From Gemmatimonadales bacterium (lineage in GTDB: Bacteria; Gemmatimonadota; Gemmatimonadetes; Gemmatimonadales; GWC2-71-9), in contig DATEGE010000005.1 in the NCBI GenBank assembly GCA_035280265.1, forward strand, positions 983 through 64,982: a DNA stretch of 64,000 bases, read 5' to 3'. Position 1 is the first letter of the stretch. The number at the start of each line of letters is the position of its first letter. Positions 4,853 through 42,403 of this stretch are shown in pieces. The notes beneath the pieces are model-generated. The model did no database searches. It worked only from the letters and a program-made list of their open reading frames with translations, and was not told the DNA's origin. The translations under genes and the position numbers were made by a program.

Positions 4853-5122
4853 TCAGCGAAGCTTGGTAATGCGATGGATGGTTTCGAGCGCCGTCACCGG
4901 ATCGGTGGCAGTGGCCTTGCCCGACATCGGTCCGGTGGCTGCCGGCCACGAGGCGACGGCATCGCGGATGTCGAGCAGCACCTCGAGTAACAACTGCTCG
5001 CGCTGATAGGCGGCGTCGAGGTCCGCCATACGCGCCTGGTCGTTCGCTACCTTGGCGCGCTGGTAGGCCTCTCGGTAGATGGCTTCGAGATTTGCGAAGA
5101 TGCGGTCGCGGGGACGGGGCAT
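4853..5122 (-). CDS. Hypothetical small protein (89 aa)
   Basis: Read from ATG 5122 (MPRPRDRIFANLEAIYREAYQRAKVANDQARMADLD...). Third positions are G/C-rich. The longer track ORF (to 5350) runs through the repeat array and is unlikely. No family recognised. Confidence 0.45.
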   Translation of the reverse strand: MPRPRDRIFANLEAIYREAYQRAKVANDQARMADLDAAYQREQLLLEVLLDIRDAVASWPAATGPMSGKATATDPVTALETIHRITKLR

Positions 5123-5138
5123 GGAGAGAAAATATAGA

Positions 5139-5223
5139 GGCGACGGATGAGAATGCGACTGATGATAAGGCGACGACGATGAGCGACGGATGAAGGGCGC
5201 GACGGACGAAGCGGCGATGATGG
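5139..5223. repeat. Tandem array of about six 13-15-bp units, consensus GGCGACGGATGAnnA
   Basis: Read directly: ggcgacggatgagaa tgcgactgatgataa ggcgacgacgatgag cgacggatgaagg gcgcgacggacgaa gcggcgatgatgg. It is the inverted counterpart of the array at 5683-5757. Confidence 0.85.
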
Positions 5224-5297
5224 CAATGCGTGCAATTCGGGTGCGACCGGCGACGAAACGATAAAGGTTGCCAATAACGGCCCCGTTAGGTTGCCAA

Positions 5298-5667
5298 ATG
5301 GTCAAGTGCGAACGGCTACATGCCTGGCGCATGGCCCACGAGTTCGCCAAAGCGGTATATCGCGTCTACCCAAGCGTTTCCGAAGAGCGAGCTGTACGGG
5401 ATCGTCTCACAGATGCGGCGGGCTTCGCTCTCCGTTCCCACTAACATTGTCGAGGGCACAGCCAAGCGGGGGCCGGGTGAGTGCCGCCGCTTCCTCGATA
5501 CCGCCTGGGGCTCGCTTGCAGAGATGTGGTACGTGCTTCTGTTCCGCGCGGAGATGGAACTCCTAACGCCGGAGCAGCGACGGGACCTAGAGCGACTTCG
5601 CTCCAGAACTGCCAAGCTGTTGTGGGGTCTGTACCGAACGGTGGCAGCGCGCGCTAGGAGCTCGTAG
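5298..5667 (+). pseudogene. Four-helix-bundle protein gene (23S rRNA intervening-sequence protein / Avd-like family) interrupted by a +1 frameshift
   Basis: The frame of ATG 5298 gives MVKCERLHAWRMAHEFAKAVYRV and stops after 50 codons. The conserved core QAFPKSELYGIVSQMRRASLSVPTNIVEGTAKRG...FLDTAWGSLAEM continues in track ORF 5320-5667. Removing one T near 5367 joins them into one 122-aa ORF. Confidence 0.7.
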
Positions 5668-5682
5668 CTGCCGAGCGCCTTA

Positions 5683-5757
5683 CCATCCCTCGCCTTGTCA
5701 TCCCCCGCCTCGTCATCCCCCGCCTCATCATCCCTCGCCTCATCATCCGTCGCCTTC
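5683..5757. repeat. Tandem array of five 15-bp units, consensus TCATCCCyCGCCTCr (reverse complement of the 5139-5223 motif)
   Basis: Read directly: ccatccctcgccttg tcatcccccgcctcg tcatcccccgcctca tcatccctcgcctca tcatccgtcgccttc. The last unit overlaps the final codons and stop of the DUF1015 gene. Confidence 0.9.
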
Positions 5758-7011
5758 TACCCTCCGCAGCACCAGCCCGCTGGGCACCTTCGGGACGAAG
5801 TACGTCGACTTGGGCGGCATCACGTCGCCCGCGTCCGCCACCGCGAACACCTCCGCGACTTTGGTGGGATTGAGGAGCACGGCGGCCGCCGCCCGGCCGC
5901 CCCGCACCGCGTCGAACGCCGCTCGGGGATCGGGGGTGTAGGCGAGCGATGGCGTGGCGGGCCCCGCCCCGAGGATGTGCTGCACGACCAGCGCCTCGAT
6001 GCGCGCCACGTCGAGCGCGCGAACCGCCGCGCTGCGACCCAGCTCCGGCACCGCGTCGAGCGACACCGTTGGCTTGAGCACCAGCGTGACATCGTACGCG
6101 TCGGGGAACGCGACGATGCACGCCGTGCGCTCGCGCCCTAGCTCGGCCAGACGCTCGACGCGATCCATGCACGGTGCCACGCGGCCGACGTCGAACCACT
6201 CACGCCATGCCGCGACGAGCTTGGTTGGGTCGCGGCCCGCCCCGAACACGATCCGATGCGTGGGAAGGATGGTCAGGCCAGGATCTCCCGCCGGGACGAT
6301 GAACGCGAGCACGCGGTCGGCCGCGGGATGCTCCTGGGCATACGCCACCGCAGTCTCGTAGCGGTGATGGCCGTCGGCGATGTACAGCTGGTCCCGGCCG
6401 GCCAGCCGGGCCAGCTCGACCGCTGGCTCGCCGGAGACTGCCCACTGGCGGATGCCGACGCCGTCGAACTCGGCACGCGCAGCGGGCACCGCGGACGCCT
6501 GCCGCACCAGGGCGCGCGCCAGCGCACCATCGCCATCGGGGGCGAGCAGGAAGATGGATTCGAGGTTCGCGCCCGTGGCGCGCAGCAACGCCAGCCGATC
6601 GGCCTTGGGAGCGGCGTGCGTCCGTTCGTGCGGCCGTACGCGCCGCGACGAAAATGGCTCCGCCCGTAGGGCCGCCAGCATGCCGAGGCGCGTGCGCCGC
6701 TCGCCGGTGGGGAGCTGATAGTCTTGCGCCACCACGTATACCGACTCTCCGGGATCGCGCCGCAACACGCCCGCGGCTCGCCACGCCGCGAGTAGAGCGG
6801 CGGCATGGGCGTAGCGATCCTCGTTGGCTCCCCCCCTCCCCCTCGGTGGCGCTTCCGGCAACATCAGATTCACGATATTGTGGGGATCACGCGCTGCGAG
6901 TCGCGCACGGTCCTCCGGGGAAACGACGTCGTACGGAGGAGCGATGAGCGCGCTCAGGCGATCCGTCGCGGCATACCGCTCGCCCTGAAACGGTGCCACC
7001 AGGGGCGGCAT
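5743..7011 (-). CDS. DUF1015 family protein
   Basis: Start chosen at ATG 7011 (MPPLVAPFQGERYAATDRLSALIAPPYDVVSPEDR), which matches the usual DUF1015 N-terminus. The track ORF extends to 7173, but that would overlap the divergent MazG-like gene. Confidence 0.75.
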   Translation of the reverse strand: MPPLVAPFQGERYAATDRLSALIAPPYDVVSPEDRARLAARDPHNIVNLMLPEAPPRGRGGANEDRYAHAAALLAAWRAAGVLRRDPGESVYVVAQDYQLPTGERRTRLGMLAALRAEPFSSRRVRPHERTHAAPKADRLALLRATGANLESIFLLAPDGDGALARALVRQASAVPAARAEFDGVGIRQWAVSGEPAVELARLAGRDQLYIADGHHRYETAVAYAQEHPAADRVLAFIVPAGDPGLTILPTHRIVFGAGRDPTKLVAAWREWFDVGRVAPCMDRVERLAELGRERTACIVAFPDAYDVTLVLKPTVSLDAVPELGRSAAVRALDVARIEALVVQHILGAGPATPSLAYTPDPRAAFDAVRGGRAAAAVLLNPTKVAEVFAVADAGDVMPPKSTYFVPKVPSGLVLRRVEGDG

Positions 7012-38629: not shown

Positions 38630-38645
38630 AGTTTCACGTGAAACC
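38630..38645. promoter_or_regulatory. parS centromere-like site 1
   Basis: aGTTTCACGTGAAACc. The 14-bp palindromic core is identical to the canonical tGTTTCACGTGAAACa. Confidence 0.9.
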
Positions 38646-38653
38646 AGGGCGAG

Positions 38654-38669
38654 AGTTTCACGTGAAACA
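38654..38669. promoter_or_regulatory. parS centromere-like site 2
   Basis: aGTTTCACGTGAAACa, a second perfect core 24 bp from the first. It lies between the mnmG stop and the parA start. Confidence 0.9.
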
Positions 38670-38686: not shown

Positions 38687-40555
38687 TCAGGCGACCCGCC
38701 GTCGCCAGCGCATCGCCTCGACCACCAGGTTGTGGAGATCGCTGGGCGACACACCGGGGATGCGGGCCGCCTGAGCGAGCGAGGTCGGTCGAACGCGATC
38801 GAGCTTCTCGCGCGCCTCCGTCGCGAGACTCTTGAGGTCGGGGTAGGGCAGGTCGACGGGCAGCGCGAACGACGCGAGCTCCCCGAGACGCTTCGCGGCT
38901 TCGCGCTCCCGCGCCAGATAGCCTTCATAGCGCAGTTCGATAGCCGCGCTCGCCACCGCGTCGTCTTCGGCGGCCACGTCCGCCCCTGCCGCGTCGAGCA
39001 GCGCTCGCAGTGAGACGCCCGGTCTGCGTGCCACATTCGCCACCCGCTCCGGCTGATCCAACTGTGTGCCGCTCGAGGCGAGGGGCCCTGCGGCGGCGCG
39101 CGGGGTGATAGTGGTCGACCGCGCCAGCGCCAGAACATCCTCTTCTTGCGCAAAGCGCCGCTCGGCCACACGACGCTCGGCTTCCGACAGCAGTCCCAAC
39201 CGCTCGGCGAGCGGCGCCATTCGGCGGAGCGCATTGTCCTGCCGCAGGAGCAGCCGGAATTCGGAGCGCGAGGTGAACAATCGGTAAGGCTCGTCCACGC
39301 CGCGTGTCACGAGATCGTCCACCAGCACGCCGATGTAGGCGTCGTCGCGCCCCAAGATCACAGGCTCCGCGCCCCGGATTCGCCGCACTGCGTTGATGCC
39401 CGCCACCACACCCTGGCCGGCTGCTTCTTCGTACCCCGTCGTTCCGTTGATTTGGCCGGCGAAGAACAGGTGCTCGAGCGGCTTCGTCTCGAGCCACGGC
39501 GTGAGCTGGATGGGCGGGTAGTAGTCGTACTCGATGGCGTAGCCCGGTCGGGTCATCCGCGCACCCTCGAGCCCCGGTACCGCGCGCAGGAACTCGAGCT
39601 GCACGGCGACGGGCAGTGAGGTGGAGAGCCCGTTCACGTACAACTCGTGCGTGTCCAGCCCCTCGGGCTCGAGGAACACCTGGTGCCGCTTGGCGTCGGG
39701 GAACTTCACGATCTTGTCTTCGACCGACGGACAATAGCGCGGGCCCCGTCCGCTGATAGCGCCGCCGTACAGCGCCGACTCCCGGAGGTGGGCGCGGATG
39801 ATGTCCTTCACTTCTTCCCCGGCCCAGGTGATCCAGCACGGGACCTGTCGCGGCAGCTCGGCGCGCTGGTAAAAGGAGAACCGGTAATCGGCACCGTCGC
39901 CGTCTTGGCGCTCCACGCGCGACCAATCGACCGTTCGCCCGTCCACGCGCGGGGGAGTGCCGGTCTTAAAGCGTGACACCGTAAGTCCTAGTGATTCAAT
40001 ATGTTCTGCAACATCGACCGCGGGCTGATCGCCCGCCCGACCGGCGGGAATCTGTGTATCAGTGCCGAGGTGAATGCGGCCGCGCAAGAAGGTGCCGGCG
40101 GTGAGCACCACCGCCTGGGCTCGGAAGCTCCGCCCGTCGGCGGTCACGACGCCGGCGACCCGCGCTCCCTCGAGAATGAGCCGGGTGACCATGCCTTGAG
40201 TCAGCTCGATCTCCCGAAACCCTTCGAGCAGGGAGCGCACCGCGCGGCGGTACAGCGTGCGATCGCACTGGGCTCGCGGCGCCCACACGGCGGGGCCCTT
40301 GGAGCGATTCAGCATCCGGAACTGGATGGTCGCGCGATCGGTCGCCCGTCCCATGATGCCGCCGAGCGCGTCGATCTCGCGCACCACGGTGCCCTTCGCG
40401 ATGCCGCCGATGGCCGGATTGCAAGACATCTGGCCGATCGTGTCGAGGTTGGAGGTGAGTAGCAGGACCCTCGCACCCAGGCGGGCCGCCATCACGGATG
40501 CTTCGGTACCGGCGTGCCCGGCGCCGACGACGATCACGTCGTAGTCGATGCTCAT
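38687..40555 (-). CDS. mnmG: tRNA uridine 5-carboxymethylaminomethyl modification enzyme MnmG (GidA)
   Basis: 622-aa ORF. MSIDYDVIVVGAGHAGTEASVMAARLG...GQMSCNPAIGGIAKG, with family-wide similarity throughout. Confidence 0.95.
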   Translation of the reverse strand: MSIDYDVIVVGAGHAGTEASVMAARLGARVLLLTSNLDTIGQMSCNPAIGGIAKGTVVREIDALGGIMGRATDRATIQFRMLNRSKGPAVWAPRAQCDRTLYRRAVRSLLEGFREIELTQGMVTRLILEGARVAGVVTADGRSFRAQAVVLTAGTFLRGRIHLGTDTQIPAGRAGDQPAVDVAEHIESLGLTVSRFKTGTPPRVDGRTVDWSRVERQDGDGADYRFSFYQRAELPRQVPCWITWAGEEVKDIIRAHLRESALYGGAISGRGPRYCPSVEDKIVKFPDAKRHQVFLEPEGLDTHELYVNGLSTSLPVAVQLEFLRAVPGLEGARMTRPGYAIEYDYYPPIQLTPWLETKPLEHLFFAGQINGTTGYEEAAGQGVVAGINAVRRIRGAEPVILGRDDAYIGVLVDDLVTRGVDEPYRLFTSRSEFRLLLRQDNALRRMAPLAERLGLLSEAERRVAERRFAQEEDVLALARSTTITPRAAAGPLASSGTQLDQPERVANVARRPGVSLRALLDAAGADVAAEDDAVASAAIELRYEGYLAREREAAKRLGELASFALPVDLPYPDLKSLATEAREKLDRVRPTSLAQAARIPGVSPSDLHNLVVEAMRWRRRVA

Positions 40556-40561
40556 GAGGCA

Positions 40562-40591
40562 ATTATAGGGGGTGTGGGATACAGACGTCGA
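40562..40591 (-). promoter_or_regulatory. Candidate promoter giving a leaderless mnmG mRNA
   Basis: On the minus strand TATAAT (40567-40562) lies only 6 nt upstream of the mnmG ATG. TCGACG/CGACGT lies 17-18 nt further upstream. There is no Shine-Dalgarno. Confidence 0.3.
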
Positions 40592-40612
40592 GGTAGACGC
40601 CGAGGGTGCCGT

Positions 40613-40632
40613 GACGCCGAGTGGATGTGAGG
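40613..40632. repeat. Inverted-repeat arm (left) flanking the four-helix-bundle gene
   Basis: GACGCCGAGTGGATGTGAGG is the perfect reverse complement of 41093-41112. It ends 2 nt from the gene stop codon. Confidence 0.9.
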
Positions 40633-40634
40633 AC

Positions 40635-41012
40635 TTAGGGCAGAGGAACCCTCGACGCGGCGCCGCTTATCTTCCGCAACAGTCCGTACAAGGTACGCCC
40701 TGTTTCGGTCACCAGCGCTTCGAGCCTCCCGAAGTCAGCGGGCTGGATGTATCCAAGCTCACGCGCCATTTCGACTATCGTTTCAACCTCGGCTAAGGAG
40801 CCGCGGGCAGTGTCGAGGAAGCGACGGTATTCTCGTGAACCGTGTCGAGTGTTGCCTTCTGCGATGTTCAGAGGCACGCTGTAACAGGCACGTCGCAACT
40901 GGTCGGCTAGAGCATGCTGTTCGTAATCAGGGAAGCCGCGAGAGGTTCGGACGCACTCAATGGCGAGCCGCTGTGCATGCTGCCAAGCCTTTAGGGTCTT
41001 GTAGTGGGCCAC
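40635..41012 (-). CDS. Four-helix-bundle protein (23S rRNA intervening-sequence protein / Avd-like family), intact
   Basis: GTG 41012, 125 aa. YKTLKAWQHAQRLAIECVRTSRGFPDYEQHALADQLRRACYSVPLNIAEGNTRHGSREYRRFLDTARGSLAEVET is typical of the family. It uses many A/T-ending codons, unlike neighbouring genes. Confidence 0.85.
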   Translation of the reverse strand: MAHYKTLKAWQHAQRLAIECVRTSRGFPDYEQHALADQLRRACYSVPLNIAEGNTRHGSREYRRFLDTARGSLAEVETIVEMARELGYIQPADFGRLEALVTETGRTLYGLLRKISGAASRVPLP

Positions 41013-41092
41013 GGAAGAACAGTGTCATCGAGTGGAGCACAGAGCGGTATCGAAAGATTGCCGGCGGTGCCTTTCCTATGCTTGCCCTCACC

Positions 41093-41112
41093 CCTCACAT
41101 CCACTCGGCGTC
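41093..41112. repeat. Inverted-repeat arm (right) flanking the four-helix-bundle gene
   Basis: CCTCACATCCACTCGGCGTC is the perfect reverse complement of 40613-40632. It lies 80 nt upstream of the gene start and 29 nt after the ABC permease stop. Confidence 0.9.
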
Positions 41113-41140
41113 TACAGCGGCTTGGCGTCTGCCTCACCGT

Positions 41141-42403
41141 CTAGGCTCTTACCCAACGCACGATTTCCTTGATGCTTGGTCGCTTGCCCGTCATCAGTAT
41201 CCCCACCCGATATATCCGCGCCGCCACCCACGTGACCACAACCGTCCCGACGACGAGGAGTGCTAACGAACTCGTCACGTCCATCCACGTGAGGTTGCCC
41301 GCGGCCCAGCGCGCCGGCGTGGCGATCGGTGCGGTGAAGGGTACGAGCGACAGGGTCACCGACAGGTGCGACTCCGGGTTCGCCAGCGTGGCGAATGAGC
41401 TGAAGAACGCGATCATGATGAGCACGGTCACCGGCGCCTGACTCTGCCGCGCCTCCTGCTCGGTCGAGGACATAGCCGCGACAGCCGCGAACATGGCGGA
41501 GTACAGGAAGAATCCTCCCAGGAAGAACGCCACGAAGACGAGCGCCGTGGCGAGCGACAGGTGGGGGACCTGGAACACCTGACCCATGTCGCGGCCCTGG
41601 TCGGGCATGCTGCTCAGCAGCGCCGCGCGCCGACCCAGCAGAAAGCGCCCTGCCACGCCCCAAATGAGAAACTGCACCAGTGAAACGGCGCCAACGCCAA
41701 GCACTTTCCCGAACAGCAGCTGGAACGGCCGGATCGAGCTCACCAGCACTTCCACGATCCGAGAGGTCTTCTCGTCGATCACCGAGCCCATCACCTGCAC
41801 GCCGTACAGCAGTAGGGCGATGTAGAGCGTGACCATCATGAAATAGGCCAGCGCGAACGACTGCCCGGCACTCTCACCAGTGGCGCGGCCGTGCGAGATC
41901 TTATTCGTTCGTAATGCCACCCGCACCTGCGCGTGCGCCACCACACCCGGATCCACGCCGGCCCGCTCGAGCCGCGCGTTCTCGACCAGACGGCCCAGGG
42001 CCTGCCGCAGCTCGCCGATGTCGTCGAGGGACGAGACGTTCGAGGCACGGTATTCGACTCCCCCCGCCTCGAGCAGCGAGTCCGACACGAGGAGGAAGCC
42101 GTCCAGGCGACGGGCCTCCACCTCGCTTTGCAACGAATCCTCCACTCCCACCCTCGCCGAGATCCGCGCTACCACGGCGAACCCCGGGAGCGCGTCGACG
42201 CGCGCGGCGACGGTCTCGCCGAAGGACGTCGTGGTTCGATCCACCACCACGATCCGCTTCACTCCGCTGCGCTGCATCATCAGCAGGGGAGCGAAGAATA
42301 CCGCCGCGAAGAAAACGGGACCGAGCAAGGCCATGACCCAGAACGAGCGCCGTCGCACGCGCTCGATGAACTCGCGACGGATCACGGCCCAGATTTTCCT
42401 CAC
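41141..42403 (-). CDS. ABC-2 type transporter permease (NatB-like)
   Basis: 420-aa ORF. The N-terminus is MRKIWAVIRREFIERVRRRSFWVMALLGPVFFAAVFFAPLL. A large extracytoplasmic loop is followed by five C-terminal helices. An ATGA-type overlap joins it to the ATPase gene. Confidence 0.8.
   Translation of the reverse strand: MRKIWAVIRREFIERVRRRSFWVMALLGPVFFAAVFFAPLLMMQRSGVKRIVVVDRTTTSFGETVAARVDALPGFAVVARISARVGVEDSLQSEVEARRLDGFLLVSDSLLEAGGVEYRASNVSSLDDIGELRQALGRLVENARLERAGVDPGVVAHAQVRVALRTNKISHGRATGESAGQSFALAYFMMVTLYIALLLYGVQVMGSVIDEKTSRIVEVLVSSIRPFQLLFGKVLGVGAVSLVQFLIWGVAGRFLLGRRAALLSSMPDQGRDMGQVFQVPHLSLATALVFVAFFLGGFFLYSAMFAAVAAMSSTEQEARQSQAPVTVLIMIAFFSSFATLANPESHLSVTLSLVPFTAPIATPARWAAGNLTWMDVTSSLALLVVGTVVVTWVAARIYRVGILMTGKRPSIKEIVRWVRA

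Follow-up and report, generated by a model that had tools for sequence, protein, structure and literature searches.

The spacer between natB and mnmG in the window, the 64,000-nt stretch of Gemmatimonadales DNA analysed here, is filled entirely by one compact cassette. It consists of a PF05635 gene, a conserved upstream hairpin, a likely leaderless-type promoter, and two mirrored arrays of ~60 nt built on an AGACGC core. It is well supported that this cassette is of the kind known from 23S rRNA intervening sequences (IVS), here sited between protein genes, and equally well supported that it is old and maintained by selection in Gemmatimonadales. The best reading of these observations is that the cassette is a free-standing counterpart of the rRNA IVS. 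More specifically, we give a probability of roughly 0.45 to a resident IVS-type cassette in a protein-gene spacer, whose arms pair in RNA and are cut by RNase III. The same layout recurs around family members in other phyla, and this family-wide pattern is worth more than the single locus.

An S23p-family gene between mirrored arms

The initial annotation had described an intact four-helix-bundle gene flanked by a perfect 20-bp inverted repeat. The open reading frame is indeed unbroken from its GTG to its TAA codon (Table 1), and its product is a member of the S23p family, the same family as Avd. Profile HMMs matched PF05635 with an E value of 1e-31 (109.3 bits, cut-off 33.8) and TIGR02436 with an E value of 2e-30 (105.3 bits, cut-off 24), and a NIAEG motif occupies residues 49-53 of the 125-aa protein. 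By sequence, the protein also matched PDB 2GSC, a Xanthomonas protein, with an E value of 2e-19. An AlphaFold monomer model (pLDDT 88) has helices at residues 7-24, 33-55, 59-85 and 91-116. Foldseek aligned this model with 2GSC at TM scores of 0.86/0.92 and an rmsd of 1.5; the next matches were 2RLD and then Avd (4DWL and 8UB7, which cover free Avd and Avd inside the DGR ribonucleoprotein).

The membership of PF05635 is very large, some genomes having many copies, and to our knowledge no function has been established besides that of Avd. The exact 125-aa protein had no identical entry in the assembly index, and neither the PADLOC defence models nor the phage collection gave a match. Several JGI records (P0008, P0021, P0037 and others) name close homologues "carbamoyl-phosphate synthase large subunit", which looks like an annotation error. 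The S23p family was first met as an ORF inside 23S rRNA intervening sequences (PMC4990558), and homopentamers are known for both 2GSC and Avd (PMC4990558; bioRxiv 10.1101/2023.10.23.563531).

Table 1. Positions of the cassette features in the window and of related cassettes at other loci.
Feature	Position	Strand	Remarks
CDS, 125 aa	40635..41012	minus	PF05635/TIGR02436 four-helix-bundle protein, S23p/Avd-like; GTG 41012 to TAA 40635
Upstream arm	41083..41142	minus	about six units of ~8 nt with AGACG core; contains perfect 20-mer, 41093-41112
Downstream arm	40583..40642	minus	mirror of upstream arm; contains perfect 20-mer, 40613-40632
Internal hairpin	41036..41071	minus	between upstream arm and ORF; GGCAC...GUGCU; degenerate in this lineage
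-10-like box CACTGT	41019..41024	minus	6 nt before GTG start; TAnnnT in most orthologues
mnmG promoter (predicted)	40562..40591	minus	-35 TCGACG 40586-40591, 18-nt spacer, -10 TATAAT 40562-40567
Second PF05635 gene	~5298-5667	plus	Pfam E value 2e-20
Divergent ORF, 89 aa	4853-5122	minus	no Pfam match
Related cassettes	L149 2501-2860; L151 825-1184		after oppD-oppF
Related cassette	L150 2501-2896		between Oxidored_molyb (molybdopterin oxidoreductase) gene and convergent M20 peptidase gene

The repeat itself proved to be more extensive than first described. The 20-mer GACGCCGAGTGGATGTGAGG at 40613-40632 (plus strand) has its perfect reverse complement at 41093-41112; with up to 3 mismatches allowed, these were its only two matches in the 64 kb, and 0 of 100 shuffles gave two matches. 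One copy lies 2 nt from the stop codon of the gene and the mirror copy 80 nt upstream of its start, in a spacer limited by the end of natB at 41141 and the start of mnmG at 40555, all as originally reported. The additional GACGCC/GGCGTC half-motifs are real, and the full repeat comprises inner arms of 30 nt with 90% complementarity (40613-40642 and 41083-41112) and outer arms of 22 nt with 82% complementarity (40583-40604 and 41121-41142), which gives ~60 nt of arm per side in total.

Both arms are built of short units. The upstream arm reads AGACGGTG AGGC AGACGCCA AGCCGCTG T AGACGCCG AGTGGATG TGAGG..., with the natB stop codon fused to its first unit (TAG-ACGG), and the downstream arm extends over the final codons of the cassette gene and its stop. 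AGACG was present 3.3 and 2.7 times per arm region versus a background of 0.15 per 100 nt, with spacings of 8, 12 and 16 within the arms, and all four window occurrences of the unit AGACGYYRAG fall at this locus. Folding of the 581-nt transcript, proposed at the outset as a check on the paired arms, gave minimum-energy and centroid structures that are both closed by an arm-arm helix (z = -4.2). A replication origin with DnaA boxes was considered for the arms and dropped, as each arm holds one weak ATCCAC-type match and the design recurs in unrelated contexts.

Upstream hairpin and promoter-like elements

The hairpin between the upstream arm and the ORF is better formed in most orthologues than in this lineage, with a stem of 10-12 bp, AAAGGCACGG...CCGTGCCTTT, and an unusually conserved loop, GCGTGAATYCGG. 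RNAalifold predicted no structure from all 21 hairpin sequences, and the covariation support that follows applies to a structure specified by hand after that null result. For this specified structure, 73% of cells were paired versus ~40% with the partner slid; eight pairs of the stem show compensatory changes, and the covariation score was reached by 0 of 500 shuffles. The G-U pairs of the stem occur on the sense strand. A sigma-54 promoter within the hairpin (GGCACG...GC) was dropped because its spacing is wrong and it is not conserved.

Closer to the gene, a TAnnnT box stands 6-8 nt before the start codon in ~22 of 25 lineages; its positions 1, 2 and 6 are conserved, the inner ones vary, and no Shine-Dalgarno sequence precedes the start of the cassette gene. 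We infer from these sequence features that the box may be the promoter of a leaderless cassette-gene mRNA. The predicted promoter of mnmG, TCGACG-18-TATAAT, matches at 10 of 12 positions; its -35 element falls inside the outermost (last) repeat unit of the downstream arm, and its -10 element ends 6 nt before the ATG (40553-40555), which implies that the mnmG mRNA is leaderless too.

The cassette is an old resident beside mnmG

Homologues of the protein at 80-94% identity are abundant in Gemmatimonadales MAGs and soil metagenomes. The genome scan recovered at least 22 species-level orthologues (57-92% identity), all adjoining mnmG, and the metagenome scan added at least 52 loci, in which natB, the gene and mnmG are co-oriented wherever both neighbours are visible. 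Every locus with enough flank shows the order sufS-sufU-natA-natB-[gene]-mnmG-parA-parB. Taken together, the gene and its arms stand by mnmG, nearly always between natB and mnmG, in at least ~75 Gemmatimonadales loci, and these loci span natB identities of 46-88%.

Synteny and arms are shared by loci L001-L039 as well as by the metagenome loci. Inverted-repeat scores in the orthologue loci were 33-108; shuffles reached no more than 27 and natural control segments no more than 25. The two arms of one locus co-evolve. The gene is accompanied by its repeats almost everywhere; the exceptions are L022, in which a rearrangement has left no upstream arm, and L024, which lacks most of one arm. The comparison with relatives suggested by the initial annotation brought up further copies of the cassette, but no empty natB-mnmG spacer among the closest relatives listed, all of which carry the cassette.

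The coding sequence bears the marks of long residence. Its dN/dS is 0.04-0.07, below that of mnmG in the same pairs, and the gene is under stronger purifying selection than mnmG. The A/T-ending codons remarked on earlier are borne out: GC3 is 0.643, and the 51 coding-like ORFs of the window with 150 aa or more range from 0.70 to 0.885 (mostly ~0.84), so that the gene falls below every one of them and outside the host range. Across 25 lineages, the gene also has a lower GC3 than mnmG, natB and natA, with one exception. The cassette has therefore kept its low GC3 over the long term, and the value is no signal of fresh import.

The cassette evolves as a block

It is well supported that the cassette evolves as a block that can be replaced, inverted and copied to other sites. 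Replacement is seen in L036, the closest relative by its flanks (natB 87% and mnmG 93% identical as proteins; flanking DNA 82-96%). The divergent block, only 46-74% identical to this relative, begins ~25 nt outside the upstream arm, ends ~30 nt inside mnmG and so takes in both arms. The cassette of L036 is of the type found in L032, L033 and L035 and has been replaced as a block.

Inversion was found in comparisons between species. The gene and its upstream hairpin are inverted relative to mnmG in L024 (3001-3369) and L026 (3001-3366), in L024 also relative to natB, and are not inverted in ~70 loci. The arm adjoining mnmG is mostly deleted in L024. It is the other arm that adjoins mnmG in L026, which places the inversion breakpoints in the arms. 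Finally, cassettes 61-65% identical to this one, with AGACGC-type arms, a -10-like box and a related hairpin, occur at loci other than natB/mnmG (Table 1).

A second cassette in the window

The window contains a second PF05635 gene, which is either a pseudogene or affected by an assembly error: a single-nucleotide break near 5361-5376 disrupts the reading frame. The cassette around it spans 5137-5765 on the plus strand and is bounded by mirrored arrays of 15-nt units, at 5137-5222 (GGCGACGGATGA-type) and 5676-5765 (six copies), with a TAGGTT box 5 nt before the ATG of the gene. On the minus strand (5120-5145), a TATATT box adjoins the left arm and is followed, 8 nt on, by the start codon (ATG, 5122) of a divergent ORF. 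An arm directly followed by the -10 element of a leaderless-type gene is thus common to mnmG and the 89-aa ORF.

Mirrored tandem arrays flank PF05635 genes in other phyla

We found at least 58 distant PF05635 members (30-45% identity) in the genome scan, from Verrucomicrobiota, Planctomycetota, Peribacteria, Myxococcota, Bdellovibrionota and Acidobacteriota. With gene boundaries set by the conserved domain and a score threshold of at least 30, flanking inverted repeats were present at 39 of 53 distant loci, versus 2 of 322 random segments from the same loci. Another 21 metagenome loci included 12 with flanking inverted arrays. Rfam, run on 20 loci, gave no match and thus no rRNA gene.

The arms are tandem arrays almost everywhere among the family members, with units that differ in sequence and size. 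Period-6 arms are made of ATCTTA, CTCGTG, CTCGTA or CTCTTG, some in opposite polarity; period 7 occurs in Peribacteria, Rhodopirellula and cyanobacteria, period 8 in Gemmatimonadota, and period 15 in the second cassette of the window. Beside the genes, arrays of period 6-12 with three or more copies numbered 3.5 per kb versus 0.28 elsewhere in the same loci, and 2.07 versus 0.10 per kb in Gemmatimonadales, so that short tandem arrays are 13-21 times denser beside PF05635 genes than elsewhere in the same loci. Arrays are ~30 nt long whatever the unit size. The idea of one unit per protomer, which calls for ~5 units at any unit length, was rejected because length, not copy number, is roughly constant. 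Core motifs are conserved beyond what pairing needs (AGACGC here; TC.T-type hexamers in Planctomycetota/Verrucomicrobiota-type loci), and each cassette lineage has its own repeat unit, even inside one genome.

Individual loci illustrate the range of arrangements. Five near-identical cassettes stand in tandem in a Pirellulaceae locus (L094 2900-5900), with a period of ~610 bp, and the downstream (GAGTAC)n arm of Pirellulaceae is translated as a C-terminal Glu-Tyr repeat tail. Among cultured organisms, the mirrored-array layout is present on plasmids of Gemmatirosa kalamazoonensis (arms GGGCAGGA / TCCTGCCC), Azospirillum lipoferum 4B and Calothrix NIES-22 (GGGTGTA unit), and is weak on a plasmid of Picosynechococcus PCC 7003 (score 29). 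Flanking arrays are in direct orientation at two plasmid loci. Two cyanobacterial plasmids have a family member within a CRISPR-Cas operon: on a Pseudanabaena plasmid (L102 1-2553) the gene lies between cas6 and cas4, beside 7-nt arrays of 10-15 copies that are mostly direct, and on a Picosynechococcus plasmid (L103 1-2985) it lies between cmr2 and cmr3. Both gene pairs, cmr2-cmr3 and cas6-cas4, are normally adjacent, so the cassette there looks like an insertion. Our literature search, which left most subscription journals outside its scope, found no description of mirrored tandem-repeat arms around free-standing PF05635 genes, and prior notice is possible.

Comparison with known systems

Strict IVSs sit in helix 25 or 45 of the 23S rRNA gene, whereas the natB-mnmG cassette lies outside rRNA; Rfam gave no match at the locus and found no rRNA gene in the window. 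The two are otherwise alike in design, with an S23p/PF05635 ORF in the loop of a long stem formed from terminal inverted repeats. ORF-bearing 23S rRNA IVSs are known from Leptospira, Coxiella, Brucella and Xanthomonas (PMC4990558). In Coxiella, RNase III cuts the 28-bp terminal stem of the IVS; the S23p ORF occupies the loop, with GACAGAT heptamer repeats just upstream of it (PMC4990558). IVS sizes of ~430-760 nt (PMC4990558) compare with ~560 nt for the natB-mnmG cassette. There are two further differences: the cassette ORF is under strong purifying selection, that of Coxiella being in decay and probably not translated (PMC4990558), and the cassette has an apparent terminator-like hairpin and promoter of its own. 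By analogy, the cassette would work like an IVS, with which it has family and design in common, but it is not a strict member of that class, being outside rRNA.

The likeness to Avd extends to the fold (TM scores of ~0.75/0.87 to 4DWL and 8UB7) and to a weak HMM match. Avd binds an RNA stem-loop through all five protomers, and beside this stem-loop a duplex of upstream and downstream segments encloses the DGR template RNA (bioRxiv 10.1101/2023.10.23.563531), an arrangement echoed by the arms and hairpin of the cassette. The two proteins nevertheless differ, with a sequence identity of 11-15% and a sub-threshold score of 24.6 bits against the cut-off of 80 of the DGR Avd model NF033474. At loci with called genes, no reverse transcriptase gene was found among the neighbours sufS, sufU, natA, natB, mnmG, parA and parB. 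The Avd score and the lack of a neighbouring reverse transcriptase gene speak against a DGR.

Insertion sequences and non-autonomous transposons share with the cassette their inverted ends of short repeated motifs, their behaviour as a block, and their copies at other loci. They differ from it in that its position beside mnmG has been stable over long periods. No transposase was found in the cassette or among the called neighbouring genes, no target-site duplication was visible by eye outside the arms, and the 64-kb window held no further copies of the arm sequence or unit. Invertons are likewise segments bounded by inverted repeats that are seen in both orientations, as here among species (L024 and L026 versus the rest). 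The cassette differs in holding a whole gene with its own promoter, not a promoter aimed at a neighbour, and its flips are seen between species; no invertase gene was found among the genes called within 4 kb. On these comparisons the cassette does not qualify as any recognisable IS, MITE or inverton.

The short tandemly repeated heptamers (STRR) of cyanobacteria offer another parallel. They were reportedly described by Mazel and colleagues in 1990 as intergenic 7-nt tandem repeat arrays of heterocystous cyanobacteria, and the PF05635 members of Calothrix, Nostoc and Pseudanabaena are flanked by 7-nt arrays. The arm units of these cyanobacterial members presumably differ from the classic STRR units, and we found no stated link between STRR and PF05635 genes.

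Proposed RNA pairing of the arms and its alternatives

By analogy with the IVS, the arms of the cassette probably pair in RNA to form an RNase III site. A transcript crossing both arms would let them zip into a duplex of ~55 bp, and RNase III cleavage of this duplex would part the cassette RNA from the RNA of the host genes; for the matching design inside 23S rRNA, such cleavage has been demonstrated by experiment. Such self-insulation would account for the survival of cassettes inside operons and rRNA genes, and the tandem-repeat build would allow the arms to pair still after slippage or loss of a unit. The role of the protein we infer solely by analogy with Avd: it is probably a pentameric RNA-binding ring and, more speculatively, its target may be a structured element in the RNA of its own cassette, be it hairpin or arms.

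The RNA model is favoured by the predicted folds, both closed by the arm helix, by the co-evolution of the arms of a locus, and by the IVS-like layout. An array length of ~30 nt at any unit size fits a requirement for duplex length, and the flips in L024 and L026 fit because pairing is indifferent to cassette orientation. Other features point the opposite way. Among arm mismatches, G-U on the sense strand is not favoured (Gemmatimonadales, 64 versus 63; distant loci, 48 versus 54), and transversions are the commonest class, so the arm sequences carry no RNA-specific signature. The terminator-like hairpin and the TAnnnT box of Gemmatimonadales sit on the inner side of the arms; if the gene is leaderless, its own mRNA would lack the upstream arm, and the arms would meet only in read-through transcripts. 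Against RNA pairing there are also the direct-orientation arrays at two plasmid loci and the conserved arm cores, which suggest sequence-specific recognition.

The main rival to RNA pairing is a role of the arms in DNA, as the ends of a mobile or recombining cassette or as binding-site arrays for the pentamer or a recombinase, the symmetry then reflecting site orientation. We hold this to be possible, if doubtful. It would suit arms that are AGACG-enriched tandem arrays with a conserved core, that have their own repeat unit in each cassette lineage even within one genome, that contain the breakpoints of inversions in two species, that recur in the same type at other loci, that show no G-U bias in their mismatches, and that lie outside the predicted terminator-promoter-ORF unit. 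It is harder to square with the missing transposase or recombinase in the cassette and among neighbouring genes, the lack of a visible target-site duplication, the confinement of the repeat motif to a single locus within the 64-kb window, the retention of at least 22 species-level orthologues all beside mnmG, and a variable unit number with no sign of one unit per protomer. Arms that serve as regulatory DNA, as operator or upstream-element arrays for mnmG and the cassette gene whose symmetry keeps the promoter context in either orientation, are an improbable reading. The -35 element of mnmG in the outermost unit, its -10 element directly after the arm in many lineages, the other arm in the same place by the mnmG -10 in the inverted L026, and the arm of the second cassette against the TATATT box of the divergent gene all agree with such a role, which however leaves unexplained the natB-side arm, the arms by convergent genes (L150 and the second cassette), and the same layout inside rRNA or cas operons.

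Two further readings fare worse. The initial annotation took it for a recently acquired foreign insertion of ~500 bp, flagged by A/T-ending codons. As a discrete unit, bounded by repeats and with its own composition and history, the cassette stands; recent foreign insertion is very unlikely, since the low GC3 of the gene and the sharp drop in identity against L036 are outweighed by the same site, the same arms and strong purifying selection over ~75 loci, and by a GC3 that stays below that of the neighbours in nearly all lineages. That the arms are a chance repeat, an ordinary terminator or a REP-like element unlinked to the gene is almost certainly wrong: nothing more than their intergenic location would suggest it, and it is contradicted by the shuffles, by the conservation and co-evolution of the repeat across all orthologues, and by the recurrence of the design around unrelated PF05635 members (74% versus 0.6% in controls).

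A broader extension of the preferred IVS-type reading goes beyond this locus and is, as a whole, unlikely. PF05635 genes would form a widespread, unrecognised class of cassettes, free-living counterparts and perhaps the source of the rRNA IVS; the arms would specifically dock the cassette's own Avd-like pentamer, and the resulting complex, of protein with RNA or DNA, would control processing and possibly spread, for example, by analogy with Avd, with a host reverse transcriptase.

The question of where ORF-bearing rRNA IVSs come from dates back to the 1990s. If most free-standing members carry mirrored arms like those of the rRNA-borne members, they would provide a sequence signature by which to find and delimit such cassettes and a plausible pool from which rRNA IVSs arise, and direct experiments could address RNase III cleavage, flipping of orientation, and whether the pentamer binds arm or hairpin RNA. 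For annotation, it matters that these cassettes occur inside operons (natAB-mnmG; cmr2-cmr3 and cas6-cas4 in cyanobacteria) and by leaderless promoters, where they may shape the expression of their neighbours.

Surroundings of the locus

The only Rfam match above the gathering score in the window is a TPP riboswitch (RF00059, 49314-49411, plus strand, 63 bits). The spacer between mnmG and parA contains two parS-like sites, at 38630-38645 (AGTTTCACGTGAAACC) and 38654-38669 (AGTTTCACGTGAAACA), which assign the locus to the origin-proximal partition region of the chromosome.
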